A stretch of 64,000 nt of DNA from Candidatus Hydrothermarchaeum profundi (lineage in GTDB: Archaea > Hydrothermarchaeota > Hydrothermarchaeia > Hydrothermarchaeales > Hydrothermarchaeaceae), in assembly GCA_002011125.2 (NCBI GenBank), contig MTMF02000009.1, positions 579,095-643,094 of the forward strand, in the 5' to 3' direction. The translations under genes and the position numbers were made by a program. Every line of letters starts with the position of its first letter. Within the stretch, counting starts at the first letter, position 1. Shown one piece after another: positions 1 to 14,628 of this stretch. The notes under the pieces are model-generated. The model was not told where the DNA came from and searched no databases. It saw only the letters and a list, made by a program, of their open reading frames with translations.

Positions 1-685
1 CTCCAACGATTACCTTCGTAACTCCAAGATTCTTCATGGCAAAGGCAGCCATATTATCGCATATTAAATCGACTGGAATCTCTTCGGCAACCATTTCAAA
101 CGTTGTCAATCGGGCTCCCTGTAATAATGGCCGAGTTTCATCAGCTATAACTTTTATCTTTTTTCCCTGTTTCCATGCCGTCTTGATTACCCCGAGTGCT
201 GTCCCTATACCGGTTGTAGCTAGTCCTCCTGCATTACAATGAGTAAGAACTACATCTCCATCTTCTAATAAGTCAGCTCCATACTCGCCTATCCGCTTAT
301 CAGATATCTTGGTTTCATCATGAATTCTCAGCGCTTCTTTAACTGTTTCAGCAGCTATATTTTTAGAGGATTCAGCTCTTTTAATCACTCTATCCAGCGC
401 CCAAAATAAGTTTACGGCTGTTGGTCTTGTTTTCTTCAACCTATCGTAGGATTTCTTTAATTCTATGAGAAGGATTTCACTAGGCTTATCTGCATTTTTT
501 ATGGCAGTAATAGCCATACCCAAAGCTGCTGCAACTCCGATAGCAGGAGCTCCTCTTATCCTTAAATTTTCAATAGCTTCAGCAATACATTCTACGTCTT
601 CGCACTCTATATACTTGACCTCAGTAGGGAGGAGCGTTTGGTCTAATATAATAACACTAGAATCTTTTAACTCGATTACTTTCAA
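1..685 (-). CDS. mtnA: S-methyl-5-thioribose-1-phosphate isomerase (eIF-2B family), runs off window start
   Basis: Not in ORF track. Manual minus-strand translation from TTG at 685 gives LKVIELKDSSVIILDQTLLP...LRIRGAPAIGVAAA...TRPTAVNLFWAL...VLTHCNAGGLAT...GTALGVI...DETRPLLQGARLT; GGTGA RBS upstream. Confidence 0.93.
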   Translation of the reverse strand, partial: MKVIELKDSSVIILDQTLLPTEVKYIECEDVECIAEAIENLRIRGAPAIGVAAALGMAITAIKNADKPSEILLIELKKSYDRLKKTRPTAVNLFWALDRVIKRAESSKNIAAETVKEALRIHDETKISDKRIGEYGADLLEDGDVVLTHCNAGGLATTGIGTALGVIKTAWKQGKKIKVIADETRPLLQGARLTTFEMVAEEIPVDLICDNMAAFAMKNLGVTKVIVG

Positions 686-733
686 GCCTATCACCACAAA
701 CCTTTTTTATTGATATCTCTGTATTTATAGGCT

Positions 734-1387
734 ATGGAACTGGTGGGGATATCAGTCTTCGCAGCTGATAGAAAAGGCCTGTTAAGAGACATAACAACGG
801 TAATAGCCAAGCATGGAGGTAATATAAGGTATATACAGCAGTTCCCCATGGATGAGGAAGTGCAAATCTATTTTGAGCTTGAGGATATAAAGGACTTTGA
901 GTCTTTAATCTCAGATCTTAATAAAGTTGAAAGTGTTATCTTGGTAGAAAAGACACGCTCATTTGAAAGCATTTATGGTAAACGAGTGATAGTTATTGGG
1001 GGTGGAGCTCAGGTCGCGCAAGTCGTGCTGGGTGCTGTTAGTGAGGCGGACAGGCATAATATTAGAGGCGAGAGAATAAGCGTAGATACTATACCATTAG
1101 TCGGTGAAGAAAAGCTAGCGGAAGCCATTAGGGCTGTTGGAAGGCTTCATAGGGCGGCTATCCTAGTATTAGCGGGTTCAATAATGGGAGGTGAAGTCAC
1201 TAAAGCTGTGAAAGAACTGCGCGAGGATCATGGCATCCCCGTGATCTCGCTAAATATGGCTGGAGGCGTTACAAAAGTGTGCGACCTTGTTGTCACAGAT
1301 CCGGTCCAAGCAGGAGTTATGGCTGTTATGACAGTAGCTGATACGGCTAGCTTTGATATTAATAAGGTGAGGGGGAAAAAATTCTGA
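734..1387 (+). CDS. ACT domain + DUF5612-type protein
   Basis: N-terminal ACT motif [20 protein letters not shown]; C-terminal [10 protein letters not shown]...[23 protein letters not shown] block typical of this archaeal family. Confidence 0.8.
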
Positions 1388-1398
1388 AGCAAAAACTT

Positions 1399-2169
1399 TT
1401 GAAATGGTTCGAAGATAAAGACGGAGCCGTAATAGCATTCTCTGGCGGGGTAGATAGCTCAGTTGTAGCAAAGGCGGCCAAAGAAGTTTTGGGTGGAAGG
1501 GCTATCGCTGTAACTTCTTTTTCACCTACATTTCCAAAATGGGAAGCAGAGTTAGCTAAAAAAGTTGCCATGGAAATAGGCATTAGATTGGAGATAGTAA
1601 ATGAAAATGAGCTGGAAAACCCGATGTTTGTTAGAAACCCGCCTAATAGGTGTTATTACTGTAGAAAAGGTCTTATCGAGGAGATAAAGAAGGTGGCGGA
1701 TGAGAATGGCATATCTCTAATTGTAGATGGTGCGAATTATGATGATATTAAGGAACATAGACCTGGTTTAAAGGCTATGAGAGAAGCTGGCGTCAGAAGT
1801 CCTCTAATTGAGCTTAAGTTAGGGAAAGAGGAAGTACGGGAGATCGCTAGAGAGTTTGGGCTTTCGGTAATGGATAAGCCTTCAATGGCGTGTCTTGCTT
1901 CTCGTATTCCTTATGGAGAATCTATTACGGGTTTTAAGTTAAAGAGAGTGGAAATGGCGGAGGATTTTTTAAGATCCATGGGAATTAAGCAATTAAGAGT
2001 TCGAAGTCATAAAAATACCGCTAGAATTGAAGTTTCTAATGGAGATGTTCTACGGGTGCTGGAGAATAGAGAAAAGATATTAAATAGGCTAACTCAGCTA
2101 GGTTTTGCCTATGTTACCCTCGATCTTGAAGGATATCGATCTGGCAGTATGGATGAAGTTTTAAAATAA
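1399..2169 (+). CDS. larE: ATP-dependent sulfur transferase LarE family (PP-loop), CxxC...C type
   Basis: SGGVDS PP-loop, NRCYYCR, SMACLASRIPYG, C-terminal GYRSGSM; true start may be ATT 1381 or CTG 1384. Confidence 0.88.
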   Translation: MKWFEDKDGAVIAFSGGVDSSVVAKAAKEVLGGRAIAVTSFSPTFPKWEAELAKKVAMEIGIRLEIVNENELENPMFVRNPPNRCYYCRKGLIEEIKKVADENGISLIVDGANYDDIKEHRPGLKAMREAGVRSPLIELKLGKEEVREIAREFGLSVMDKPSMACLASRIPYGESITGFKLKRVEMAEDFLRSMGIKQLRVRSHKNTARIEVSNGDVLRVLENREKILNRLTQLGFAYVTLDLEGYRSGSMDEVLK

Positions 2170-2322
2170 TTCTACGATAAAATTACAATTTTGCACATGT
2201 TTATTTTTTGTAGTCGAAAATATTCTCAAAATTTCGTTTGGTATTGTTCAACAGAAATAATTTATTACTAGAAATAATATTTTCACCGAAAAATATTTAT
2301 AATAAGACATAAAGCGGTATTA
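2170..2322 (+). promoter_or_regulatory. AT-rich promoter region of the sulfur-relay operon
   Basis: TATA-like TTTATAATA near 2297 after an A-rich BRE; AGAAATAAT occurs twice and CGAAAA(A)TATT twice. Confidence 0.45.
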
Positions 2323-3570
2323 GTGATTCTTATGATCGTCGGATTAAAATGTAGAAATTGCGGTAAGAGGTATCCCGAAGAGCCTGTAAGCATCTGTGAG
2401 GATTGCTTTGGGCCACTAGAGGTTGAATACGACTACGAGAAAATTAAAGAATCTTTGAGTATAGAGAAGATAGAGAAAGGACCTAACACGCTCTGGAGAT
2501 ATAAAGATTTACTACCAGTAAAAAGCAAGGTCGTAGATTTAAAGGCAGGCTTTACGCCTCTTCATAAGGCGGATAATCTTGCTGAAGAACTCGGTTTAAA
2601 AGAGCTTTATATTAAAAATGACTCTGTTAATCCTACTTTTTCATTTAAGGATAGGGTGGTATCAGTCGCAGTTTCTAAAGCCTTAGAGTTTGGTTTCGAT
2701 ACAGTGGGGTGTGCTTCTACAGGGAATCTAGCAAATTCTGTCGCAGCTCATGCAGCGAAAGCTAAGTTAAAATGTTATATTTTTATACCTGCTGATCTGA
2801 ATTTGGGAAAAATTATTCAAACCCTAGTTTACGGTCCGAACTTAATAGGGGTAAAGGGGAATTATGACGAAGTAAACCGACTTTGCACAGAGATCGCAGG
2901 CTATTATGACTGGGGTTTTGTTAATATAAATTTACGGCCCTACTACGCAGAGGGCTCTAAGACATTAGGCTATGAAGTTGCTGAGCAGCTAGGATGGACT
3001 ACTCCAGATAGAATTGTAGTGCCGGTAGCATCAGGGTCTCTCTTAACCAAAATATGGAAAGGTTTCAATGAGTTGGTTGAAGTTGATATCATAGATGAAG
3101 TTAAAACAAGAGTTACGGCTGCACAGGCACAAGGATGTTCTCCAGTGGTTACTGCATTTCTAACAAACAGTGAGGTGAAGCCTGTAAGGCCTAATACTAT
3201 CGAAAAGAGTCTCGCAATAGGTAATCCTGCTGACGGCTATTATGCCGTTAAAGTGCTTAAAGAATCTATGGGCACTGCAGGTGCGGCGTCAGATGAAGAA
3301 ATTATAGATGGTATAAAGCTCTTAGCAAAGACTGAGGGCATATTCACAGAGACGGCCGGGGGAGTCGTTGTAGGCACATTAAAGAAACTTGTTGAAAATG
3401 GTGAAATCGATAAAGATGAGAGAGTTGTAATATACATTACTGGCAATGGGTTAAAGACTCAAGACGTATTGGCAGATTATCTGCCTTCACTTATTAAGAT
3501 AAATCCAGATCTTAATGAATTCAATGAACTTTTGAAAAAAAAGACTACTGTAAAGGAGGTGGCTATTTAA
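2323..3570 (+). CDS. thrC: threonine synthase-like PLP enzyme (fold type II) with N-terminal zinc ribbon; may be sulfur-carrier-dependent
   Basis: CRNC...CEDC, PLP lysine in NPTFSFKDR, ASTGNLA, PVASGSLL, ITGNGLK; stop overlaps start of the MoaD-like gene. Confidence 0.85.
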   Translation: MILMIVGLKCRNCGKRYPEEPVSICEDCFGPLEVEYDYEKIKESLSIEKIEKGPNTLWRYKDLLPVKSKVVDLKAGFTPLHKADNLAEELGLKELYIKNDSVNPTFSFKDRVVSVAVSKALEFGFDTVGCASTGNLANSVAAHAAKAKLKCYIFIPADLNLGKIIQTLVYGPNLIGVKGNYDEVNRLCTEIAGYYDWGFVNINLRPYYAEGSKTLGYEVAEQLGWTTPDRIVVPVASGSLLTKIWKGFNELVEVDIIDEVKTRVTAAQAQGCSPVVTAFLTNSEVKPVRPNTIEKSLAIGNPADGYYAVKVLKESMGTAGAASDEEIIDGIKLLAKTEGIFTETAGGVVVGTLKKLVENGEIDKDERVVIYITGNGLKTQDVLADYLPSLIKINPDLNEFNELLKKKTTVKEVAI

Positions 3571-3839
3571 TGGCTATTGTTAGGCTTGCTACTCCCCTGC
3601 GGAAATATAGTCAGGGAAAGCCTGAGATTACAGCTCCGGGGAAAACTTTGAAAGAGGTTATTATGAACATAGATTCTGCTAGCCCGGGTTTTGCTGAAAA
3701 AATCTTAGAAAATGACGAGATAAAGAGATTTGTAAATATCTATGTGAATAATGAGGATGTAAGGTTAGGGGATGGGTTGAATACAAAAGTGGGAGAAAAA
3801 GATACTATCTCTATACTTCCAGCAGTATCAGGTGGTTAA
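3570..3839 (+). CDS. ubiquitin-like sulfur carrier (MoaD/CysO/SAMP family)
   Basis: 89 aa, RFVNIYVNNEDVR, ends exactly in PAVSGG. Confidence 0.93.
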   Translation: MAIVRLATPLRKYSQGKPEITAPGKTLKEVIMNIDSASPGFAEKILENDEIKRFVNIYVNNEDVRLGDGLNTKVGEKDTISILPAVSGG

Positions 3840-3842
3840 CTA

Positions 3843-4331
3843 ATGGTACTCATTTATAGTACACCTATCGAAAAGTGGGAATGTGCGTATAAGGAATGCG
3901 GAGCCAAATGTTGTACAGGCGGTAGAGAAGTTACTGCCGGGGATATAAGAAGGATAGCAAGGGCTACCGGACTTAAGCCGGAAAAGTTTGTGCATTTAGA
4001 GGATGAGAAAGGACTTTTCAGGTTAAAAAATGGTGATAGATGCGTATTCCTTAATGACGACTACTCGTGCCGTTTGCATAAAAGGGGAGTCAAGCCAATA
4101 TTCTGCCGTATGTACCCCTTTAAATTTGAAGGAGTTATTTATGCGGATGAAATAGTCCTTAAGGTTAAAGTCACGGATAACTGCCCTGGAATCGGTAGGG
4201 GACATAAGATTGGGGAAGATTTGGAGGCTACTATAGAAGAACTTGGGAATAAATTTGTAAACGAGATAAAAGATTTCTTAAGATTAAAGGGAGAAGGGTT
4301 GTCAAATGAGTCTATCATTGGAAGAGATTAA
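3843..4331 (+). CDS. YkgJ-family cysteine cluster protein
   Basis: ECAYKECGAKCC, CVFL...CRLH...KPIFCRMYPF, CPGIG. Confidence 0.85.
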   Translation: MVLIYSTPIEKWECAYKECGAKCCTGGREVTAGDIRRIARATGLKPEKFVHLEDEKGLFRLKNGDRCVFLNDDYSCRLHKRGVKPIFCRMYPFKFEGVIYADEIVLKVKVTDNCPGIGRGHKIGEDLEATIEELGNKFVNEIKDFLRLKGEGLSNESIIGRD

Positions 4332-5103
4332 AAGGTATAGCAGGCAACTCGTGTTGCCGGACTTTGGTAGTAGAGAGCAGAATAGGCTTAAAAAAGCCAA
4401 GGTAGCTGTTACTGGCGCTGGAGGACTTGGATGCCCGATATCAACTTACTTGACCTTAGCAGGCGTAGGAAGAATCGACATAATTGACATGGATAAGCTA
4501 GATCTTACTAATTTGAACAGACAATTTCTGTATAGTGTTGAGGATATAGGAAAGCCTAAGGCTGAACTGGCTGCTAAGCGTTTGAGCGAGATAAATCCAG
4601 AGATAGAAATCAATGGTATCACAGAAATGATAACGTACGATAACGCGTTTGACCTCCTTAAAGGATACGATGCGGTAGTTGATGGAACAGATAATTTTCC
4701 GGTTAGATATGCGGTTAATGATGCGTGTGCGGTTAACAGAGTACCTCTCTTCCATGGAGCAGTGCTGATGTATGAGGGCCGGGCTATGAGCATAATTCCT
4801 AAGGAAACTGCATGTTTTAGATGCGTTTTTCCAGAAGCACCGCCTGCAGGTACAGTGCCCACTTGTAGGGAAGCCGGCGTTATAGGCGCAATGACAGGAA
4901 TGGTTGGAGCTATTCAAGCATTAGAGGCGATAAGATATCTTGCTGGAAAAGAGATAGCCCTTAAGAATACACTATTGGTTATAAATGCCGATACTATGGA
5001 TTTCGATAAGATCAAGGTAACTAGAAAGGAAGATTGTACTGCATGCGGCGAGAAATTTATCGCTAAGCCTGTAGTTTATGTTTGCGAAGATGAGGGAAAC
5101 TAA
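4306..5103 (+). CDS. moeB: HesA/MoeB/ThiF E1-like adenylyltransferase, no rhodanese domain
   Basis: RYSRQL, GAGGLG, TNLNRQ, DGTDNF, CFRC, PTCREAG, CTAC. Confidence 0.92.
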   Translation: MSLSLEEIKRYSRQLVLPDFGSREQNRLKKAKVAVTGAGGLGCPISTYLTLAGVGRIDIIDMDKLDLTNLNRQFLYSVEDIGKPKAELAAKRLSEINPEIEINGITEMITYDNAFDLLKGYDAVVDGTDNFPVRYAVNDACAVNRVPLFHGAVLMYEGRAMSIIPKETACFRCVFPEAPPAGTVPTCREAGVIGAMTGMVGAIQALEAIRYLAGKEIALKNTLLVINADTMDFDKIKVTRKEDCTACGEKFIAKPVVYVCEDEGN

Positions 5104-5104
5104 A

Positions 5105-5350
5105 ATGGAGCCTGAAGTCTTTGACCTTAGAGGGGAAAAATGCCCGGATACCTTCGTTTACACAAAAGTGAAGTTAGAAGAGCTGGCGTACTCTGGCGGT
5201 GGTCTTTTAAAGGTTATCGTAGATTATCCGCCGGCAGCTGAGAATATCCCTAGGAGTCTGAAGGAGGAGAAAATAAAGTACGAGGTTTTAGATGTTAAAA
5301 AAGTTGGAGATAAGACCTACGAATTGCTAATAAAAGCTCCTCCGGTATGA
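5105..5350 (+). CDS. tusA: TusA/SirA-family sulfurtransferase
   Basis: FDLRGEKCPDT motif, LKVIVDYPPAAENIP; ATG at 5105 after GAGG. Confidence 0.88.
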   Translation: MEPEVFDLRGEKCPDTFVYTKVKLEELAYSGGGLLKVIVDYPPAAENIPRSLKEEKIKYEVLDVKKVGDKTYELLIKAPPV

Positions 5351-6279
5351 TGATTATGGAAAACATAAGAGCACATTTAGGGATGAAGTACAACTTAGTT
5401 GGGGTTAAAATCCTCAAGGAAAAACCAGTAGATATAGAAAAGCCTACTAGAAAGCTTCGTTACTGTGAGATGGTAAGAAAAGCTGCTAATGGCGAAGTGA
5501 TTACTGCGGAGCATGAGGATATAGCATGCCCCAATGCTGAGGTAACCCTCGGTTTTGTTGAGCCTGTGTATGTTGACATACAGCCACGTATTTCTCCAGC
5601 GGAAACTAAAGTGGTTAAGGTTGGTCCATTAGATAAAATTCGAGATCCTGATATCATACTAGCGATTCTTAATCCGAGGCAGGCAATGGAGGTTGCGTCC
5701 ATAATGGACGGCCTTGAAGCAAAGTTTGCGGGCAGTATGGCGGTTTGCGGAGAGGCTACCGCTAAGCCATATATGGAGAAAAAAAGTAATGTAACGATGC
5801 TTTGCGGTGGAGCGAGGACTTTTGCGGATTTCAGGGATTCAGATCTGATAGTAGGAGGTCCCCCTGAGTTTTTTGAAGAACTGTCAAAGAGAATATCTGC
5901 TCTTTCAAAGACCTGCGTGGCTCTTTGCGGTTGCAAAACAAGTGACCTCTCTCCACGTATAATTGAGAGCTTTAGGAAGATAGGCTTCGAGAAGGGAACT
6001 GACTATTTCTTTGGCAAGGTTGATGGTACAAATGTTAGGATATATTTAAACAAAGACACGCATGGTAAGATAAAGTACATAACTGTGCATATACCCCTTA
6101 GGGGAGTTGAAGTAAAAGCAAAAGAACCTTTGATAGTCAAGAAGAGGGGAAATTGGACAGATGTGGCGATGACCTTCGGTTTAGGCGAGGCGATTGATTT
6201 AAACACTGGCAGGGGACTCAAAGAGGCTATTATGGATATACTCAAAAAGGTTAGTGATTCAAAGGTAATAGCCAGATGA
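5347..6279 (+). CDS. DUF169-family protein with extra C-terminal domain
   Basis: RYCEMV, IACPNA, MAVCGE, LCGGAR Cys pattern; then CVALCGC and about 120 unassigned residues. Confidence 0.7.
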   Translation: MMIMENIRAHLGMKYNLVGVKILKEKPVDIEKPTRKLRYCEMVRKAANGEVITAEHEDIACPNAEVTLGFVEPVYVDIQPRISPAETKVVKVGPLDKIRDPDIILAILNPRQAMEVASIMDGLEAKFAGSMAVCGEATAKPYMEKKSNVTMLCGGARTFADFRDSDLIVGGPPEFFEELSKRISALSKTCVALCGCKTSDLSPRIIESFRKIGFEKGTDYFFGKVDGTNVRIYLNKDTHGKIKYITVHIPLRGVEVKAKEPLIVKKRGNWTDVAMTFGLGEAIDLNTGRGLKEAIMDILKKVSDSKVIAR

Positions 6280-7460
6280 GTGTATCACCCGAGTTTTCTG
6301 CTATGGATGTGGGTAATTTGAGTTACAGGTATAAAGACTTCATAATAATAAATCCGCTGATGAGGGGGGGAATAGTGCCTAAGAGTGTTACTGAGAGGCT
6401 CTGTGATGAAGGATGGTTAGAAGTAGGGTATAATCTCTGCCACGATTGCATTGAAGGTAGATCGAGTCTAATAACAAAGCCGAATGTGAAGGAATTTCTT
6501 TCGGAGATAGCTGTATTTTTTGGTGGTGACGAGGCAGAGCATACCTTTGGATGTAGGGCAGCGCAGTTTGCAGTCATGAAAACCATATCAGAGGTATCTC
6601 CGGATGGGGTAGTTTTATCGGATCCTAACAGCCACTACTCTACGAACATAGCTGCGGAGATGTGTGGTCTGAAAGTCGTTGAGTCACCGCATACGGGATA
6701 TCCTGAATATAAAGTTGAGGTGGACTCCGTTATTGAGAAGATAGAGGAGATAGGTAATCCTGCTCTTGTGGTAATGACTCATGCTGATCCGTATTATGGG
6801 AACCTAGCTCCAGTTAAAGAAATAGGTAAAGTATGTGCTGAGAAAGAGATACCTTATATGGTGAACTCCGCTTATACTGGCGGTGTAATGCCTATCAATA
6901 TGAAGGATTTAAACGCCGACTTCTTGACTTTATCCGCTCATAAGTCGATGGCGTCTATTGGTCCTCTAGGATTTCTAGTCACAACTTATGAGTGGTCTAG
7001 AAAGGTATTTGCGCTTTCTAAGTCTAAGCCGGATTGGACTGGCAGGGCGTTTGGTAAAAAAATCCCTAATGTCTTTGGCTGCAGTATTGGCGGCCTCCCC
7101 TTGGTCTGTGCAATGAATTCATTCCCCTATGTTAAGGAGAGAGTCAAAAAATGGGACGAGGAGATAAATAAAACCAATAAGTTTATTGATGCAATGGAGG
7201 ACCTGGGAGATATAATGCTTCTGGGTGAGCGGCCTCATAGGCATCATCTTCTTCATTTTGAGACGCCTCTCTTCTGGGAGATATCTAAAAAGCATAGGCG
7301 GAAAGGATTCTTCCTTGCGGAAGAAATGATAAAACGAGGCATTGTTGGCCTGCACAAGGGTCTAAGCAAGCATATAAAGCTGTCGGTATATGGGCTCAGC
7401 GATGAAGAGGTCAGCAAGGTGTTAGAGGCGTTTAAAGAGGTTGCTGAAATATCAGCTTAA
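6276..7460 (+). CDS. pscS: O-phospho-L-seryl-tRNA:Cys-tRNA synthase (SepCysS), divergent
   Basis: INPLMRGG, GYNLCHDC, PLP lysine in SAHKSMAS, FGCS, RRKGFFL, IKLSVYGL. Confidence 0.88.
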   Translation: MSVSPEFSAMDVGNLSYRYKDFIIINPLMRGGIVPKSVTERLCDEGWLEVGYNLCHDCIEGRSSLITKPNVKEFLSEIAVFFGGDEAEHTFGCRAAQFAVMKTISEVSPDGVVLSDPNSHYSTNIAAEMCGLKVVESPHTGYPEYKVEVDSVIEKIEEIGNPALVVMTHADPYYGNLAPVKEIGKVCAEKEIPYMVNSAYTGGVMPINMKDLNADFLTLSAHKSMASIGPLGFLVTTYEWSRKVFALSKSKPDWTGRAFGKKIPNVFGCSIGGLPLVCAMNSFPYVKERVKKWDEEINKTNKFIDAMEDLGDIMLLGERPHRHHLLHFETPLFWEISKKHRRKGFFLAEEMIKRGIVGLHKGLSKHIKLSVYGLSDEEVSKVLEAFKEVAEISA

Positions 7461-7711
7461 TCACTAAATCCTCTGATTAAGACCTCAACGTTGGCGTCTT
7501 TTACTCCTTCAATTTTTTTAATTTCTCTCTCACCTCTAACGGCTAGCACGAAATTATATGGGCAGCTGCTCAAGATGCCTCGCATCTTAACATTTACCAC
7601 TTCACCCTCTATTTTTACTTCTTCTATGAGGCCTAGGTCAACTATGTTGCTGCCTGCCCTTATGCTGTGCACTCTTCTTAGTGCTCCTAATACTTCTTCC
7701 TCCGTTACCAT
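7457..7711 (-). CDS. DUF59/SufT-like metal-sulfur cluster assembly factor
   Basis: VTEEEVLGALRRV...NIVDLGLI...SCP motif. Confidence 0.8.
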   Translation of the reverse strand: MVTEEEVLGALRRVHSIRAGSNIVDLGLIEEVKIEGEVVNVKMRGILSSCPYNFVLAVRGEREIKKIEGVKDANVEVLIRGFSD

Positions 7712-8526
7712 ATTACCCTTAAGCTCATGTCAAGCCATTTACTGGCGGTAGTTAGTGATCCCATGGAGATTATATCCGGCTTTAACTTTATGTAGGAGTC
7801 TATATTCTTCTCAGTGATTCCTCCGGAGATCTCTATTTTTACCTTTTTCCTATATCCTTTTTCTTTTATCTTCTCTATTATTTTTTCTGCTTTATCAGGT
7901 GTCATATTATCAAGCATTATTATATCAACTCCTAACTCGCAGGCTGTGAGGGCTTCTTCAGCGTTCTTAACCTCAACTTCTAATGTCTTGGATTTATTTT
8001 TACTTCTTGCTTTTTTTATAGCCTCTTCTAATCCTACGATAGCAATATGATTATCCTTGATTAAATATGCTTCATCCAAAGTATTTCTATGAGGCCATCC
8101 TCCTCCGACTTTTATGGCTTTTTTCTCGAAGTATCTAAACCCTGGGGTGGTCTTCCTAGTGCCCGCTATGATAACACCATAGGCTGAGCTTTTTTTTACA
8201 AGCATGTGGGTATAGGTGGCGATCCCACTCATCCTCATAAGTATATTGAGGAGGACTCTTTCGATCGTTAGAATATTCCTGGCGTTGCCGTTAATCTTGA
8301 GAATGACATCTCCTTTTCCAATGGCATCACCGTCTTTCAGGCTTGACTCATATTTAAGGCCGAAATGTTCTAAGAGCAGTATTGATTCTTCTAGGCCAGC
8401 TAGAACCCCATCTTCTTTAGCGATTACTTCTGCGCTTATTTTTTGGTTCTTAGGTATAGTAGCCTGCGTAGTAATATCCTCTTTCCCTATATCTTCTTTT
8501 AAAAAATCTAATAATTTAGAAATCAT
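7705..8526 (-). CDS. nadC: nicotinate-nucleotide pyrophosphorylase (carboxylating)
   Basis: EDIGKEDIT, TRKTTPG, IKDNH, EVEV, IMLDN, SGGI. Confidence 0.96.
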   Translation of the reverse strand: MISKLLDFLKEDIGKEDITTQATIPKNQKISAEVIAKEDGVLAGLEESILLLEHFGLKYESSLKDGDAIGKGDVILKINGNARNILTIERVLLNILMRMSGIATYTHMLVKKSSAYGVIIAGTRKTTPGFRYFEKKAIKVGGGWPHRNTLDEAYLIKDNHIAIVGLEEAIKKARSKNKSKTLEVEVKNAEEALTACELGVDIIMLDNMTPDKAEKIIEKIKEKGYRKKVKIEISGGITEKNIDSYIKLKPDIISMGSLTTASKWLDMSLRVIW

Positions 8527-8570
8527 GCTATTGAAATTATTTATACACGGCATATAACTATTAATTTTTT

Positions 8571-9089
8571 ATGCGTGCTCTATTGGTAATCGATATGCTA
8601 AACGACTTCGTAAGAGAGGATGGGGCGCTTCCAGTGCCGGGCGCTAACAAGCTAATAGAGCCTATAAACAAATTAATTGGGGAATTTCGGGAGAGAAAGG
8701 AGCCAATAATCTTCGTACAGGATTCCCATGATGAGGATGACAGGGAATTCAAGGCATGGCCTAAGCATGCGGTAGAGGGAACTGAAGGGGCTGAGGTAAT
8801 AAAGGAGCTGGATAAAAGGCCAGAGGATATAGTGGTTAAAAAGAAGAGGTACTCTGCCTTCTACAATACTGATCTAGATGATATATTGAGAGAGAAGGGC
8901 GTTGACACGCTCGTGTTGACCGGAGTGCTCACAGATATTTGTGTGATGCATACTGCTACCGATGCAGCCATGAGGAATTATAAGATAATTGTGCCTGAAA
9001 ATTGCGTAGCATCATCTACCGAGGAAAACCATAAGTGGGCGATAAAGCACATGAAGGAAATCCTCCTTGAAGTCGAAGTCATTGCCTGA
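8571..9089 (+). CDS. pncA: nicotinamidase (isochorismatase family)
   Basis: VIDMLNDF, DSH, WPKHAV, KKRYSAF, GVLTDICV; NAD gene context. Confidence 0.85.
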   Translation: MRALLVIDMLNDFVREDGALPVPGANKLIEPINKLIGEFRERKEPIIFVQDSHDEDDREFKAWPKHAVEGTEGAEVIKELDKRPEDIVVKKKRYSAFYNTDLDDILREKGVDTLVLTGVLTDICVMHTATDAAMRNYKIIVPENCVASSTEENHKWAIKHMKEILLEVEVIA

Positions 9090-9500
9090 TCCTTCCCAAA
9101 GCGTCCACAACGATTCCTTCATGTAGCCATAGTAGGGCGTGTACTCTCTATTATCTTTTACGTAGGTATAAGTCAGGGCAGGGTTATGGTCTAACTGCTT
9201 TTGAAAGGATGACTATCTCCTCAGGGATAATATTAGGGGCTCCTTCGTCGGCGAAGACCTCGCTTATGAAGCTGAAGATGTGTCCCATGAGTTATCCTTC
9301 TTGACGGCGGATTACCCTGTTTTATCTTAGGCTTTTCCTTGGGGTAGCTTGTCCTTGGCTTTATCTTCTTTCCCTTACTAGTCCTGGTTGGCAACTCTTT
9401 TGGGATATTGACCTCCTACCTTTTAGCTTTTTGCCGTCTCCTCTAAGGCTATGTTGAGTTCTGTCAGCTGTGTATAATTCCTGAAAGTTGCTGATTTCCA
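9090..9500 (-). pseudogene. possible decayed gene relic
   Basis: Unusually long gap with short protein-like minus-strand fragments (MGHIFSFISEVFADEGAPNIIPEEIVILSKAVRP; YTPYYGYMKESLWTLWE) broken by stops. Confidence 0.3.
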
Positions 9501-9630
9501 ATATAGGAATTATAGCGGTACTTGTTTTATACTTTATTAGAAAAATTTCTTTTTAATGATTTTATTGTAAAATGATAAGATTTTTCTAATGTGCCTTGAA
9601 AATAATATGGATAACTGGGGGTAATCGTTT

Positions 9631-10005
9631 TTGGCGGAGATTATTGTAACTATCGGCGGCAAAATAATTGAAGTAGAGCTTTGCGAGTCTCTTATATGTT
9701 CAAAAATACTAGATGCCTTGCCTATCCGCTCAAAGGCAAGTAGATGGGGTGATGAGGTTTATTTTTCAATACCGGTTGAGGCAAGCTCAGATGAAAATAA
9801 AAAAGAAATTCTTGAGATAGGAGATGTTTGTTACTGGGAAGCAGGGAGAGCAATCGCTATATTCTTCGGCCCAACTCCAGTAAGCGAGGGCGATGAATGC
9901 AGGGCATATGAACCCGTTAGTGTAATAGGAAAGGTGGTTAAAGGCATTGAGCTGTTAAAGTCGGTAAAAGACGGAGATGAGGTTAAAGTTGAGTTAGCAA
10001 GGTGA
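9631..10005 (+). CDS. cyclophilin-like fold protein (DUF369/TM1367 type)
   Basis: RWGDEVYF, GDVCYW, AIAIFFGPTP. Confidence 0.85.
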   Translation: MAEIIVTIGGKIIEVELCESLICSKILDALPIRSKASRWGDEVYFSIPVEASSDENKKEILEIGDVCYWEAGRAIAIFFGPTPVSEGDECRAYEPVSVIGKVVKGIELLKSVKDGDEVKVELAR

Positions 10006-10011
10006 AAAAAT

Positions 10012-10152
10012 ATGAAGATCAAAGATGTGGTATGTGATTGCGAGGTTGATAAAAACAAGGCATTTAAAAAAGAGTATAAAGGCAAAATCTATTTCTTCTG
10101 CACCCCAACATGCCGGGTAGCATTTGAGGATAATCCAGAGAAATACATCTAA
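10012..10152 (+). CDS. small YHS/TRASH metal-binding protein, 46 aa
   Basis: Below ORF-track cutoff: MKIKDVVCDCEVDKNKAFKKEYKGKIYFFCTPTCRVAFEDNPEKYI; GGTGA RBS at 10001. Confidence 0.88.
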   Translation: MKIKDVVCDCEVDKNKAFKKEYKGKIYFFCTPTCRVAFEDNPEKYI

Positions 10153-10155
10153 GAT

Positions 10156-10398
10156 TTATCTCATCTCTTTAGAGATCTGTGCAAGAGTCTTTATACCGTC
10201 CTCTGTGAGAAAGTAGCTATCTTCACGCTTTTCTACTAAACCCTTTTTTGAAAGCTCCTCAAGCGATTTATTCACCCTTGGGAGACTTATCCTGAGTTTG
10301 TGGGAAATAGCCTTAGGCGTTGCTTCAGATTTAAGTACCTCCATTATTCTCAGCCTATACTTATCTGCTTTAACAAACCCTATTATCGAAACATCCAT
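10156..10398 (-). CDS. small winged-helix DNA-binding protein
   Basis: RLRIMEVL..ATPKAISHKL.IS...VNKSLEEL..KGLV....Y.LTEDG. Confidence 0.8.
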   Translation of the reverse strand: MDVSIIGFVKADKYRLRIMEVLKSEATPKAISHKLRISLPRVNKSLEELSKKGLVEKREDSYFLTEDGIKTLAQISKEMR

Positions 10399-10400
10399 AA

Positions 10401-11558
10401 CTACACCTCAAGCTTTTTCAACTGCTCAAGAGTATAATCTCTGATCTCATCCACCGAGGGTAAATCTCTAACTATCTTCCCACCCCTAATAAGAGGAGTT
10501 AGCATACTTTTCATTTCCACTTTACAGCTATCGCATATTACACTTTTAGAGCCGTTGCTTGGCATAATTTTATCCTTAAGGCAATTAGGGCACCGGTAGA
10601 CCTCCTTCTTTCCACCGTATTTACCCCTTTTAGCAACAGGCTTTCCTTCCATTTCAACAATATCCATGGCGAAGTCTATAGTCTTAGAGTTGCTTATACT
10701 CGTCCCAATACCAAAGCCGTCTGCATTTGTGAACTCGACTATATTATTCTCGTCAACTCCACCTGACACAAAAATCATTACGTCCTTGTACCCCCTCAAA
10801 TCCAGTTCCCAACGGACTTCATCAATTATCTTCTTCATATTACCCCTCCTAGATCCAGGAGTATCAAGACGTACCCCTTTAAGCCCTTTGACGGCTTCAG
10901 CTGCCATTATTGACTCGATTTTCTCATCATAATAGGTGTCAACTAGAGCGATCCTTGGCACATCCTTGTCAACTACCTCGTCAAAGTACCTCCAAGCTGT
11001 AACTTGGTCTCCTACAACAATAATTAGTGCATGAGGCATAGTACCAGAAGCTCTCTTGCCGATGATTTTTTCTGCAGCAACGCAAGAAAATCCATCTAAG
11101 CCTCCTATATAAGCAGCTCTATCTATCATTGGCGCAAGGATTGGATGCATCCTACGAACTCCAAAGCTCAGTATAGTCTTATCGCCTGCAAGCTTTTTCA
11201 GCCTCGCTGATTTAGTTGTTATTCCTGAAGCCTGGCAAATTAATCCTAGCATGGGCGTTTCAAGCTCGCAAAACTCGGAGTACATTCCCTCAATCCTTAC
11301 AACGGGTTCAATAGGATAAAACACGCTTCCTTCAGGGAATGTATCTATGTTAACATTATATCCCTCAAATAAATATGCCAGCTCTTCTATTCCGGATAAT
11401 ATGCCCCATTTATAGTTCAGGGGTAGGGAGCTAGTAGTGCATTCTGCGATAACTCTTTTATCAATGCCCTTCTTTTTAATGACTTCTCTAGCCCTAACGA
11501 AATAGATATCTGTGGTTCTACCTTTCTTTACCTCGTCTTCAGATGCTGTATGAAACAT
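10401..11558 (-). CDS. pncB: nicotinate phosphoribosyltransferase
   Basis: TTDIYF, SFGVRR, GTMPHAL, LVDT, VRLDTP, SGG, GFGIGT, C-terminal zinc ribbon. Confidence 0.95.
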   Translation of the reverse strand: MFHTASEDEVKKGRTTDIYFVRAREVIKKKGIDKRVIAECTTSSLPLNYKWGILSGIEELAYLFEGYNVNIDTFPEGSVFYPIEPVVRIEGMYSEFCELETPMLGLICQASGITTKSARLKKLAGDKTILSFGVRRMHPILAPMIDRAAYIGGLDGFSCVAAEKIIGKRASGTMPHALIIVVGDQVTAWRYFDEVVDKDVPRIALVDTYYDEKIESIMAAEAVKGLKGVRLDTPGSRRGNMKKIIDEVRWELDLRGYKDVMIFVSGGVDENNIVEFTNADGFGIGTSISNSKTIDFAMDIVEMEGKPVAKRGKYGGKKEVYRCPNCLKDKIMPSNGSKSVICDSCKVEMKSMLTPLIRGGKIVRDLPSVDEIRDYTLEQLKKLEV

Positions 11559-11599
11559 GAGAATAGTATATAACCTATTATGTTTAAAAAGTTGTCTTC

Positions 11600-12415
11600 A
11601 TGGAGACGGCTTTAATTGGATGTGGAGCCATAGGAAATGTACTGGCAAGAGGTATTGCTGAGAAAATCGTTGACGCTACCTTGGAGGTAGTATACGATAA
11701 TAATCATGAGAAAGCCTTAAGCCTACTGGAGTTCTTTCAGATTAAGCCGAAGGTTGCGAAGGACATAAATGAGATCTTAGAATCAGAAGTAGATTTAGTA
11801 ATAGAAGCAGCTTCCATAGAAGCCGTAAAGCAATACGGTCCAAGAATATTGAGGTCAGGTAAAAATCTTATGGCCATGAGCGTAGGAGCATTTGCTGATG
11901 TGTCTTTCGCAAGCGAGATGGAGAAACTAGCAAGAGAAAACAAAGTCAAAATATATCTACCCTCCGGAGCCATAGGGGGGCTAGATGCTCTAAAGTCCGC
12001 AGCAGCTGGCAAGATATATAAAGTTACTTTGAGAACCACAAAGCCTCCTAAGGCGTTAGAGAACGCTCCTTATCTTAAAGAGAAGAATATTAGTCTGAAA
12101 GATCTAAAAGAGAAGAAGTTGGTATTCCAGGGTAATGCCCTTCAAGCGATCAGAGGTTTTCCGGCAAATGTCAATACAGCAGTAGCAGTAAGTCTTGCAG
12201 GAATAGGAGCTGAAAAAACAACTGTGGAGATAGTGGCAGATCCGCAGTCTACGAGAAATATCCATGAGATATCAGCAGAGGGAGAATTTGGAAAATTATA
12301 TTTTAAAGTAGAAAACCTACCTTCGCCAGAGAATCCACGGACCAGCTTACTCGCAGCATTCTCCGCTATAGCAACATTAAAATCTATTACAAAGCCGATG
12401 GTGATAGGGACATAA
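11600..12415 (+). CDS. nadX: L-aspartate dehydrogenase
   Basis: GCGAIG, SGAIGGLD, FPANVN, NPRTS. Confidence 0.95.
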   Translation: METALIGCGAIGNVLARGIAEKIVDATLEVVYDNNHEKALSLLEFFQIKPKVAKDINEILESEVDLVIEAASIEAVKQYGPRILRSGKNLMAMSVGAFADVSFASEMEKLARENKVKIYLPSGAIGGLDALKSAAAGKIYKVTLRTTKPPKALENAPYLKEKNISLKDLKEKKLVFQGNALQAIRGFPANVNTAVAVSLAGIGAEKTTVEIVADPQSTRNIHEISAEGEFGKLYFKVENLPSPENPRTSLLAAFSAIATLKSITKPMVIGT

Positions 12416-12461
12416 ACTTCATAAATTTTTTCATACGCTCAGGATTCCTTACGGTGATGTT

Positions 12462-13364
12462 ATGGGTGAATTGAGAGAAATCGAAGAGCTTAAAAAAGAC
12501 TGCATAGTTCTAGCTCATAATTACCAGATACCACGTATCCAAGATGTAGCCGATTTTGTAGGAGACTCGCTTGGCTTGTGTCAGAGGGCAACCAAGGTAG
12601 ATAAGCCTTATATCTTATTTTGCGGTGTTGACTTTATGGCCGAGTCAGCAGCGATGTTAAATCCTGATAAGACAGTGCTGATGCCTGAATTCATGGCTAA
12701 GTGTCCGATGGCTGCCCAGCTTCCGGCTGAAAAAGTACGAGAGGCTAGGAGAAAATATCCCGACGCCGCAGTTGTTTTATATATTAATACAAGGCTTGAA
12801 GCTAGAGCTGAGGCAGATATAGTTTGCACCTCAGCTAACGCAGTGAAGATAATAAAATCACTGCCTGAGAAAGAGATAATCTTTGGGCCTGACTGGGCTT
12901 TGGCTTGGCATGTGCAAAGGAATGTGCCTGAGAAAAAAATAATTACAATACCTGCCCAGGGAGCATGCCGCACGCATCTTTTATTCAAGCCGGAGCACAT
13001 TCTAGAGGCTAGGGAGAAGTATCCTAATGCCGAGGTTTTAGTTCACCCAGAGTGCAAACCAGAAGTGCAACTATTAGCTGATAAAATATGCAGTACTGAA
13101 CAAATGATACGATGGGCGAAAGAATCAAACAGTAGAGAGTTTATAATAGCAACTGAGATCGGCTTATTACATCGGTTGAAAAAAGAGAATCCGGGAAAAA
13201 CATTTATTCCTGCATATAAAAGAGCAGTCTGCATTAGTATGAAGAAAAACACTTGGGAAAAATTTATGGAAGAGCTGAGAGGAAGAAAGAATGTAGTAAA
13301 GATAGACCCAGTTATAGCAGAAAAGGCACGGAAATCTTTGGATAGGATGCTTAAAGCGGTATAA
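12462..13364 (+). CDS. nadA: quinolinate synthase A
   Basis: LAHNYQ, GDSL, CGVDFMAE, CPMA, CTSANA, HPEC, C.SMK. Confidence 0.96.
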   Translation: MGELREIEELKKDCIVLAHNYQIPRIQDVADFVGDSLGLCQRATKVDKPYILFCGVDFMAESAAMLNPDKTVLMPEFMAKCPMAAQLPAEKVREARRKYPDAAVVLYINTRLEARAEADIVCTSANAVKIIKSLPEKEIIFGPDWALAWHVQRNVPEKKIITIPAQGACRTHLLFKPEHILEAREKYPNAEVLVHPECKPEVQLLADKICSTEQMIRWAKESNSREFIIATEIGLLHRLKKENPGKTFIPAYKRAVCISMKKNTWEKFMEELRGRKNVVKIDPVIAEKARKSLDRMLKAV

Positions 13365-13394
13365 TTAAATAGAGAGGATAAAAAAAAAGTAAAT

Positions 13395-13727
13395 ATGCCT
13401 ATTGAGAATGTCGTAATTTTTATGGGGGGGATTCTTCTAACTTACCTTTGGATTAAAAGTATGAGAAACATTCTATCTGCTAAAGGAGAGGGGGCAAGAA
13501 GGAGGTCTTATCTGGAGGATAATTTGGTAAGAGAGTTGAAGGATGCTATAGGCAGGAAGGGAGAGGATTTGGATAAGTCAGATATTGCGGGAATACTTGT
13601 AGAAGTATATGATGACCTGTACTCCAGAATATCAGAAGAGGAAGAGAAAAGGAAAAAAGAGATATCCGCTATTAGAGCTGAAATAGAAGACTTGAAATCT
13701 AAACTTAGGTCCCTCAAAGAGAGATAA
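13395..13727 (+). CDS. hypothetical protein, N-terminal TM helix + coiled coil
   Basis: Hydrophobic N-terminus, charged heptad C-terminus, sits 1 nt before the pfkB gene. Confidence 0.65.
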   Translation: MPIENVVIFMGGILLTYLWIKSMRNILSAKGEGARRRSYLEDNLVRELKDAIGRKGEDLDKSDIAGILVEVYDDLYSRISEEEEKRKKEISAIRAEIEDLKSKLRSLKER

Positions 13728-13728
13728 T

Positions 13729-14628
13729 ATGGAAGTAATAGGGATAGGAGCCCTAAACGTAGACAAGCTGTTTTTTGTCGAAAGAATAGCTGGAGCCGGA
13801 GATGAAGTACCAGTAAATCGCTGGGTTAGAGCACCTGGCGGTTCTGCAGCAAACACTATAATAGGGCTAGCAAGGTTAGGGGTTAAAACCGGTTTTATCG
13901 GGAATGTCGGTTATGATGATGATGGGACTTACCTTCTAAACGACATGGAAAAGGAAAATGTAGATACCGGTGGAATAAAGAGAATTAAAGGTTCAACAGG
14001 GATAATTTTAGGATTTGTAGATAAAAAAGGTGAGAGAGCTCTATACGCATATCCTGGAGTAAATAATACCGTGGAAATAAGCCCTGATATTTTAGAATAT
14101 GCAAAAAAAGCTAAAATGTTGCATCTATCCTCTTTTGTTGGAGAAAGAGCTTATGAGGCTCAGAGAAGGCTTTTAAAAGAGTTATCAGATATTGAAATAA
14201 GTTTTGCTCCCGGTGCCTTATATGTTAGAAAAAAAATTAAGGCATTGGAGCTGATGATACGTAAGAGTTCTGTGATTTTCCTTAATAAAAGCGAGGTTGA
14301 AATATTAACCGGTAAAGAATATAAGAAAGGTGTATACGAGCTGCTTAAAAAAGGCGCAGGCATAGTAGCTGTGACTTTAGGGGAAGCAGGTTGTTATATT
14401 GCTGATAACCGGGAGAACCATAGGATTAATGCCTATAAAACACAGGTAGTAGATACAACAGGAGCTGGAGATGCTTTCGCAGCCGGGTTTTTATATGGTT
14501 ATCTCAGGGGCAAGACTCTTATTGAGTGCGGTAAACTAGGAAATTGGGTTGCCTCGAGATGCATCTCACGAGTTGGCGCTAGAAGCGGTCTACCCTATGC
14601 CAGCGATCTAGATTCTGCGAACCTCTAA
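13729..14628 (+). CDS. PfkB-family carbohydrate/nucleoside kinase
   Basis: PGGSAANT, VDTTGAGDAFAAG. Confidence 0.93.
   Translation: MEVIGIGALNVDKLFFVERIAGAGDEVPVNRWVRAPGGSAANTIIGLARLGVKTGFIGNVGYDDDGTYLLNDMEKENVDTGGIKRIKGSTGIILGFVDKKGERALYAYPGVNNTVEISPDILEYAKKAKMLHLSSFVGERAYEAQRRLLKELSDIEISFAPGALYVRKKIKALELMIRKSSVIFLNKSEVEILTGKEYKKGVYELLKKGAGIVAVTLGEAGCYIADNRENHRINAYKTQVVDTTGAGDAFAAGFLYGYLRGKTLIECGKLGNWVASRCISRVGARSGLPYASDLDSANL

Follow-up and report, generated by a model that had tools for sequence, protein, structure and literature searches.

A seven-gene archaeal operon uniting a predicted MetM/MetO-type homocysteine module with E1, TusA, DUF169 and SepCysS genes

Gene content of the operon

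The window analysed here is a stretch of 64,000 nucleotides (nt) from Candidatus Hydrothermarchaeum profundi (contig MTMF02000009.1, positions 579,095 to 643,094 of the forward strand), and the subject of this work is a cluster of genes for sulfur transfer and sulfur amino acid synthesis at its positions 2323-7460. According to the open reading frame (ORF) listing, seven ORFs lie there on the + strand, all in one direction and overlapping or abutting each other. The assignments given below come from Pfam and NCBIfam profile searches of the window proteins and, together with the ORFs, bear out the coordinates and all seven identities of the original prediction, which had described seven co-oriented, tightly packed genes.

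2323..3570, + strand: ThrC-like pyridoxal 5'-phosphate (PLP) enzyme of the carrier-linked, probably MetM-type, clade, 415 amino acids (PALP 235 bits; TIGR00260 thrC 312.5 bits)
3570..3839, + strand: ThiS/MoaD/SAMP1-like Gly-Gly sulfur carrier (MetO-like), 89 amino acids (PF02597 ThiS 47.8 bits)
3843..4331, + strand: YkgJ/UPF0153-type CxxCxxCC protein, putative Zn or iron-sulfur (Fe-S) binder, 162 amino acids (PF03692 34.2 bits)
4306..5103, + strand: E1-like adenylyltransferase of the MoeB/ThiF/UbaA type, 265 amino acids (PF00899 279.9 bits)
5078..5350, + strand: TusA/SirA-family sulfur transferase, 90 amino acids (PF01206 56 bits)
5347..6279, + strand: long-form DUF169 protein (COG2043), 310 amino acids (PF02596 112.4 bits versus a cut-off of 27)
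6276..7460, + strand: SepCysS (Sep-tRNA:Cys-tRNA synthase), 394 amino acids (TIGR02539 365.9 bits versus a cut-off of 365.25; PRK09331 394 versus 301)

From 5' to 3', the junctions consist of a 1-nt overlap, a 3-nt gap and overlaps of 26, 26, 4 and 4 nt, and this tight spacing suggests that the seven genes form one operon. Moreover, a 7699-nt contig from a marine metagenome of a separate study matches window positions 4300-7800 with 0 differences, so the same strain was present in a second data set. Since the arrangement is matched by this independent contig and is also kept in the loci of relatives described below, it is not a product of chance or of assembly.

The ThrC-like enzyme and its carrier

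The first two genes are referred to as module A, which includes YkgJ as well in this order of archaea. The ThrC-like protein carries an N-terminal CxxC...CxxC zinc ribbon and the SFKDR motif of the Schiff-base lysine, which is invariant in alignment A1. It is not the sole thrC of its source genome (G000; 2.19 Mb in 19 contigs, 97.65% complete), where a canonical copy lies at G000:C9:408990 (376.7 bits; 43% identity with the ThrC-like protein). When the contigs of a broader set of genomes were scanned and the best 80 loci of the ThrC-like protein taken, one came from a 'Candidatus Hydrothermarchaeota archaeon' and 79 were bacterial, at 56-65% identity (Chloroflexota, Nitrospirota, Aquificota, Planctomycetota, Actinomycetota, cyanobacteria and others). 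These bacterial homologues are far closer to the window protein than the ThrC of its own genome is. Also, a match to a ThiS-like carrier lies downstream of the ThrC-like gene in 71 of these 80 loci, many of which hold an E1 gene as well. The window carrier, whose C-terminus reads SGG, is 30-51% identical to the carriers beside the bacterial ThrC-like genes; it reaches 51.7 bits with the NF041918 SAMP1 model, below the cut-off of 60, and gave no BLAST match to the MoaD or TtuB-like genes of its own genome at E<=0.01.

A tree of 135 sequences places 109 carrier-linked proteins (the window protein, 25 others from the order Hydrothermarchaeales, 4 from other archaea and 79 from bacteria) apart from 26 ThrCs, the latter comprising canonical ThrCs of archaea along with second copies from Nitrospirota loci. 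The branch between them has a value of 100 in the Shimodaira-Hasegawa-like approximate likelihood ratio test (SH-aLRT), in a quick IQ-TREE search under LG+G4 with no bootstraps; the link of the window enzyme to the MetM of Streptomyces albulus is indirect and runs via Actinomycetes and cyanobacterial members of the clade. Moreover, of 22 bacterial loci of the clade searched with Rfam, 10 have an S-adenosylmethionine (SAM) riboswitch of class I (RF00162) immediately before the ThrC-like gene and in the same orientation. For example, Actinomycetes loci L090, L148, L135 and L111 present the riboswitch-enzyme-carrier layout reported for S. albulus, where a SAM riboswitch lies upstream of metM and metO is adjacent (available part of PMC12172450), and MetM, MetO, MoeZ and Mec are described as an experimentally supported methionine route (excerpt of PMC13759103). 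The separate clade, the adjacent carriers and the bacterial SAM riboswitches suggest that the ThrC-like enzyme and its carrier are probably an archaeal member of the MetM/MetO-type homocysteine synthase modules. The original prediction had already pointed to MetM and MetO, and its reading gains support from the riboswitches and the tree.

Two bacterial groups differ in the details of these loci. One further bacterial locus, from an Actinobacteria metagenome-assembled genome, has a T-box leader immediately before the ThrC-like gene in place of a SAM riboswitch (L093:7667-7921). In Aquificota loci L082, L085 and L103, no carrier adjoining the ThrC-like gene was found by tblastn, unlike in most phyla; Aquifex is listed without any then-known homocysteine route in the available part of PMC5764234.

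The source genome was also inspected for other genes around homocysteine. Profile searches did not find DUF39/HcyBio in it, and no convincing Cys_Met_Meta_PP (MetY-type) enzyme was found, the best match (26.8 bits) being an ordinary aminotransferase. A proposed homoserine kinase is present (TIGR02535, 561 bits), and a GHMP homoserine kinase was rejected, the sole thrB-like match being mevalonate kinase. Likewise, identity of the ThrC-like gene as cysteate synthase was discarded because of a low score (TIGR03844 71 bits versus a cut-off of 324.9) and because a separate cysteate synthase exists at G000:C9:1574338-1575594 (495.4 bits).

An alternative is that the ThrC-like protein is a second threonine synthase, or that it makes cysteine from O-phosphoserine as a CysM/CysO-like enzyme. 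Its TIGR00260 score of 312.5 bits passes the thrC equivalog cut-off of 167.1. Also, in the accessible text of PMC12172450, where a cyanobacterial homologue 51.6% identical to MetM is placed beside a metO-like gene, a cyanobacterial member of the clade had threonine-making and threonine deaminase activity in vitro and was not MetM-like in cells, so function may vary within the carrier-linked clade. The genome encodes SepRS, so this organism handles phosphoserine. Moreover, neither MetE (PF01717) nor MetH (PF02574), for the step from homocysteine to methionine, was found in the genome; a Methanosarcina acetivorans control was also negative with both models, so these do not capture every archaeal methionine synthase. 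Together with the location of the genome's single JAMM hydrolase, which lies not in the cluster but ~280 kb away, and with the presence of both the ThrC-like gene and DUF39 in families f10, f18, f22, f28 and f51, these points weigh against homocysteine synthesis by module A. Nonetheless, a second threonine synthase would be at odds with the canonical thrC already present, with the separation of the clade from canonical ThrC and with a carrier gene that is nearly universal at its side, and for both threonine and cysteine it would be necessary to explain why the signals preceding 10 of 22 bacterial members are SAM riboswitches, not threonine or cysteine signals, and why the other homocysteine routes were not found in the genome. 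Synthesis of threonine or cysteine is therefore considered very improbable, and the MetM/MetO-type assignment of module A is preferred.

The distribution of the ThrC-like gene relative to DUF39 deserves a separate comment. DUF39 alone occurs in family f6 and the ThrC-like gene alone in most of the order, yet the two profiles are not cleanly complementary. Because both coexist in many other archaea, the ThrC-like gene is no simple replacement of the DUF39 system. Outside the order, the gene was found in 22 genomes, 8 of them in f14, a family without any SepCysS. In two unrelated archaeal families, a carrier-E1 fusion directly follows the ThrC-like gene (L075:7374-8699 in G039, f14; L178:2706-3809 in G198).

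The E1-TusA hub

The window E1 aligns with PF00899 over positions 1-237 of 238, has the CxxC pairs CFRC and CTAC and is without a rhodanese domain. It is the only ThiF-family match in a whole-genome search, and the source genome holds two carriers besides that of the operon, a MoaD beside MoaE and a TtuB-like protein beside a TtuA-like PP-loop enzyme; one E1 is thus available for three carriers. A single E1 that serves several carriers is known from UbaA and the SAMPs of Haloferax and from TtuC, TtuB and TtuA of Thermus. In contrast to these systems, the window E1 gene is embedded in an amino-acid operon, with TusA next to it.

The window TusA carries its Cys-Pro motif within GEKCPDT. No second copy of TusA, DUF169 or the carrier was detected in the source genome by BLAST or tblastn at E<=0.01, and a NifS cysteine desulfurase is encoded there (595.6 bits). 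In the sulfur-assimilation operons described by Iyer et al. 2006, an E1 without rhodanese is, in the available part of the text, always accompanied by SirA, and a carrier, a JAB peptidase and an O-acetylhomoserine sulfhydrylase are also present (PMC1779556). The part of the window operon that leads from TusA to E1 to the carrier follows this established pattern, and TusA presumably takes over the persulfide-carrying part of the rhodanese domain that this E1 lacks.

Pairing of long-form DUF169 with SepCysS

The window DUF169 and a SepCysS family model were used to search 401 archaeal genomes, and adjacency was counted by hand among the matches listed, with G021, G022, G030, G018 and G034 left unscored. 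Outside the order, 18 of the 19 listed DUF169 matches of >=97 bits directly adjoin SepCysS, the exception being G233; inside the order, at least 17 adjoin it and 5 do not. On the DNA itself, SepCysS is adjacent in 19 of 20 loci centred on DUF169, with TusA in 14/20 and E1 in 12/20, and the 4-nt overlap between DUF169 and SepCysS occurs in both gene orders. The SepCysS linked to DUF169 falls in a score class of its own, at 350-375 bits in the order and ~490-530 beyond it. Where a genome has three SepCysS copies, DUF169 always accompanies the one of this class; order members G006, G008, G012 and G016 have a SepCysS of another class and no DUF169 match. Moreover, the arrangement (E1)-TusA-DUF169-SepCysS, referred to as module B, recurs in several other archaeal families. 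The original prediction had named both DUF169 and SepCysS in its gene list and had missed that their pairing is the tightest link of the cluster.

The long form of DUF169 consists of an N-terminal DUF169 domain and a C-terminal extension of ~110 amino acids, with Cys40, Cys153, Cys194 and Cys196 invariant among the 25 sequences of alignment A2. A structure model has a predicted local distance difference test (pLDDT) score of 85.4. In a fold search with the full-length model, the C-terminal 110 amino acids resemble the common YbjN/secretion-chaperone fold with middling scores (Z <=8.2), and residues 12-174 gave a single weak fold row (9ry8_A, Z 4.0). A search of the Protein Data Bank with the DUF169 sequence gave no match at E<=1, and the N-terminal domain is without a solved relative. 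A search of the ESM Atlas with DUF169 returned scores of 0.80, which is the chance level. Some ESM Atlas structure rows are bacterial DUF169 proteins fused to 4Fe-4S ferredoxin domains, which is a lead only; no fused DUF169 forms >544 amino acids were found, which is weak evidence.

The window SepCysS is the only match of its genome over the cut-off, and its TIGR02539 margin is slight (365.9 versus 365.25 bits). It aligns to the Methanocaldococcus jannaschii SepCysS 3WKR with 296 bits, and Cys55, Cys58, Cys269, Lys223, Arg94, His120 and Tyr121 are invariant among the 26 sequences of alignment A3. We take Lys223 to be the PLP lysine, the three cysteines to be catalytic and the Arg, His and Tyr residues to bind phosphate. 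Judging from its sequence, this SepCysS belongs to a divergent clade. SepRS is also present in the source genome (TIGR00470 749.6 bits versus a cut-off of 380.65), and mcrA was not found there, so there is no sign of a methanogen. Besides CysRS, the genome has a shorter CysRS-like gene of 411 amino acids (G000:C9:444530-445765, L013; 377.7 bits, aligned over model positions 1-400 of 466).

DUF169 is most likely a dedicated partner of this SepCysS clade. Given its four invariant cysteines, it would most likely serve SepCysS by delivering or reducing sulfur, or a metal or Fe-S centre. In the literature searched, no description was found of SepCysS with DUF169, TusA, E1 or a carrier as one system; DUF169 is said to flank SepRS occasionally in the available part of PMC8762117.

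Conservation of the cluster in archaea

With the ThrC-like protein as query, a search of 41 genomes, including the source genome, found that most members of the order encode an orthologue (66-83% identity) as well as a canonical ThrC, which shares 37-45% identity with the query. Around these orthologues, 30 loci of relatives were compared; 3 are cut at a contig end, which leaves 27 informative loci. The carrier is present in 26/27 of them, YkgJ and E1 in 22/27 each, TusA in 19/27, DUF169 in 16/27 and SepCysS in 10/27. Parts of the cluster are also found in at least five further archaeal families, so the neighbourhood is conserved across the order and, in part, beyond it. YkgJ is specific to the version of the cluster found in the order, as it was undetected in 20 loci (L171-L190) save L190, which itself belongs to the order.

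The relatives display several rearrangements. In the operon of G006, the ThrC-like gene, the carrier and YkgJ are followed by a different E1 and then by a SepCysS of another clade (572 bits), without TusA and DUF169. Six loci of families f7, f8 and f9 (L061, L062, L063, L064, L066 and L077) have an additional gene, for Thi4 thiazole synthase, between those of the carrier and YkgJ. Pfam confirmed it in two of them, and in the other four it is inferred from an ORF of matching size and position. The confirmed ones are:

L061:8121-8921: Thi4 thiazole synthase in a relative (Pfam)
L066:8602-9435: Thi4 thiazole synthase in a relative (Pfam)

Moreover, in family f8 the cluster is split, with the ThrC-like gene, the carrier, Thi4 and YkgJ at one site and E1-TusA-DUF169-SepCysS at another (L187-L189).

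Proposed mechanism

In module A, E1 would adenylate the C-terminal glycine of the carrier, which would then be converted into the thiocarboxylate (carrier-COSH) with sulfur that most likely comes from a TusA persulfide loaded by NifS, or from sulfide. The ThrC-like PLP enzyme would exchange the phosphate of O-phosphohomoserine for the carrier thiocarboxylate, and a hydrolase would finally free homocysteine, the candidate being the single JAMM protein of the genome, which is encoded elsewhere. In module B, SepCysS would turn Sep-tRNACys into Cys-tRNACys, with TusA as the likely upstream sulfur carrier and DUF169 most likely as the delivery or reduction partner.

Linkage of the two modules

The original prediction proposed that one relay, from TusA to E1 to the carrier thiocarboxylate, supplies both homocysteine and Cys-tRNA synthesis. 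The association of the two modules extends beyond the order. For example, in locus L183, from a family related only at domain level, the ThrC-like gene, the carrier, E1, TusA, SepCysS and DUF169 lie on one strand, and in L178 and L179 TusA, a carrier-E1 fusion and the ThrC-like gene stand beside SepCysS-DUF169. Both modules lie within ~10 kb in members of families f28, f51 and f22, and in G154, G250, G269, G345 and G307 the ThrC-like gene is 6-9 kb from the DUF169-SepCysS pair. Also, 15 of the 18 genomes outside the order with this pair carry a ThrC-like gene.

Based on these data, the cluster is best described as a sulfur-amino-acid operon of two modules, probably fed by one sulfur-activation hub, and we give this reading a probability of roughly 60%. 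The gene identities, the clade membership, the SAM riboswitches of bacterial members, the conservation and co-occurrence and the single E1 and TusA are observed, whereas all of the chemistry, the part played by DUF169 and a relay common to both modules are inferred. A relay shared by both enzymes is plausible because the genome has no E1 or TusA other than those of the operon, and because SepCysS of two clades is found in it. A more specific version is tentative and we lean against it: that SepCysS of this clade would receive its sulfur from a protein relay, either as TusA persulfide via DUF169 or as carrier-COSH passed to an Fe-S or cysteine site in a TtuB/TtuA-like manner, with the same hub serving MetM-type homocysteine synthesis.

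Several observations count against the sharing of a relay. Of the genes in the cluster, that for SepCysS is kept least often (10/27 informative loci), and in five genomes of two genera it is found on other contigs than the cluster (G026, G028, G032, G033 and G013). In family f8, the ThrC-like locus of G025 (L064) is ~26 kb from its E1-TusA-DUF169-SepCysS locus (L188) on one contig, and the corresponding loci of G010 (L066 and L187) are on separate contigs. By our own reasoning, if carrier-COSH attacked the aminoacrylyl-tRNA, the resulting Cys-tRNA would be N-acylated and would require hydrolysis. Finally, other sulfur-using genes (Thi4, ThiI, thioredoxin-like and LarE-like) occur in these clusters.

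Some of these observations would also be expected if the genes were only regulated together, that is, if one promoter served several consumers of sulfur and the relay worked solely for the ThrC-like enzyme, with SepCysS using sulfide or sulfur from its own persulfide or Fe-S centre. The Thi4 genes inserted between carrier and YkgJ in six relatives fit such an arrangement, as do ThiI after SepCysS-DUF169 in L180, a thioredoxin-like gene at the same place in L172 and the LarE-like gene upstream of the window operon, and so does the low constancy of SepCysS. Moreover, SepCysS lies ~2-6 kb from DUF39/HcyBio in other archaea (G198:C45, G236:C5, G312:C35, G053:C14, G369:C2, G255:C16, G051:C24 and G293:C12), which suggests that it tends to adjoin whichever homocysteine system is present. 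Nonetheless, E1 and TusA remain with SepCysS-DUF169 where the ThrC-like gene and the carrier lie elsewhere (L172 and L173, with the ThrC-like gene on another contig, and L187-L189), and the SepCysS slot after E1 is kept through the clade swap in G006. These two findings argue against common regulation by itself, which is considered a less probable but serious rival explanation.

Comparison with known systems

The CysO/CysM/MoeZ/Mec system of Mycobacterium tuberculosis also relies on a PLP enzyme, on which a carrier thiocarboxylate displaces the phosphate group of an O-phospho-amino acid. It differs from the window operon in that CysM belongs to another PLP family, uses free O-phosphoserine as substrate and releases free cysteine. 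Carrier systems with a cysteine synthase appear as operon types 4c/4d in the accessible part of PMC1779556.

The closest likeness of module A is with MetM/MetO of S. albulus (Hasebe et al., as cited in PMC12172450 and PMC13759103), in which a ThrC-family enzyme also stands beside a Gly-Gly ThiS-like carrier that is activated by an E1. In contrast, the window host is archaeal, its E1 is without rhodanese and paired with TusA, and the operon adds YkgJ, DUF169 and SepCysS and has no hydrolase in the cluster; it also has no known riboswitch, no search for RNA elements having been made there. A protein-thiocarboxylate methionine pathway with HcyS, HcyF, HcyD and MetY was reportedly described in Wolinella succinogenes by Krishnamoorthy and Begley in 2011. 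This system resembles the window operon in the use of a carrier, a rhodanese-less E1 and SirA/TusA for homocysteine (operon type 4e in the available part of PMC1779556); it differs in that the acceptor enzyme is an O-acetylhomoserine sulfhydrylase and that its operon includes a JAB hydrolase and genes of sulfate reduction but neither SepCysS nor DUF169.

With the SepRS-SepCysS(-SepCysE) systems of methanogens and Archaeoglobus (3WKR, 5X6B, 2E7I), the window SepCysS shares the lysine for PLP, all three cysteines and the residues that bind phosphate; also, SepRS of the source genome adjoins a translin-family gene, as described in the available part of PMC5424206. In contrast to the SepCysS of methanogens, that of the window is of a divergent clade and stands in an operon with E1, TusA and DUF169. 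The DUF39 (COG1900)/NIL-ferredoxin/COG2122 system of methanogens and Desulfovibrio is alike in that it co-occurs and often clusters with SepCysS and in the idea of a single donor; its proteins are unrelated, and its substrate is aspartate semialdehyde, not O-phosphohomoserine (excerpt of PMC5764234). The same excerpt proposes COG2122 as persulfide supplier for both DUF39 and SepCysS in Methanosarcina, so the notion that SepCysS and a homocysteine enzyme share a persulfide supplier is not new. On another contig of the source genome, at G000:C11:70-2689 (L210), an ORF weakly resembles COG2122/UPF0280 (57.7 bits versus a cut-off of 271) and adjoins a 584-amino-acid protein with a weak N-terminal ThiS match and two 4Fe-4S motifs, followed by an AA_synth (PF06684) gene and an aldehyde dehydrogenase.

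What is new here is the archaeal MetM/MetO-type module, its union with E1-TusA-DUF169-SepCysS and the DUF169-SepCysS pairing, whereas MetM/MetO chemistry and operons of a rhodanese-less E1 with SirA were known. To our knowledge, the sulfur donor of SepCysS in vivo is regarded as unsettled, and from the present operon and related ones three candidates emerge as partners of SepCysS, namely TusA, the long form of DUF169 and the pair of E1 and carrier. Moreover, the predicted MetM/MetO homocysteine route would be extended to archaea, long-form DUF169 gains a first functional context, and annotation pipelines will label this likely homocysteine-pathway enzyme as 'threonine synthase'. If the relay is indeed shared, diverse archaea would use a single ubiquitin-like relay to make both sulfur amino acids, each from an O-phospho precursor.

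Surroundings of the operon

A scan for promoters and terminators of the sigma-70 type gave results no better than shuffled sequences, the bacterial model being unsuited to archaea, and no tRNA genes were found in window positions 1-14000. The features that flank the operon, as identified by Pfam and NCBIfam unless stated otherwise, are the following:

734-1387, + strand: ACT-DUF5612 protein, upstream neighbour
1399..2169, + strand: LarE-like PP-loop ATP-dependent sulfur transferase (TIGR00268 310.7 bits versus a cut-off of 150)
2170..2322, + strand: AT-rich intergenic spacer, presumed promoter region of the operon (sequence reading)
7457-7711, - strand: DUF59/FeS_assembly_P protein, 84 amino acids, converging on the SepCysS end
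7705-8553 (-), 8571-9089 (+), 10401-11558 (-), 11600-12415 (+): ORFs of a nicotinamide adenine dinucleotide (NAD) synthesis cluster

Because the AT-rich spacer of 153 nt intervenes, the LarE-like gene is likely an upstream neighbour of the operon rather than a member of it; among the loci of relatives, 4/30 (L050, L056, L061 and L079) likewise have a LarE-like gene ahead of the ThrC-like one. Past the DUF59 gene, the NAD-synthesis cluster comprises nadC, an isochorismatase/nicotinamidase-like gene, an NAPRTase-like gene and aspartate dehydrogenase.

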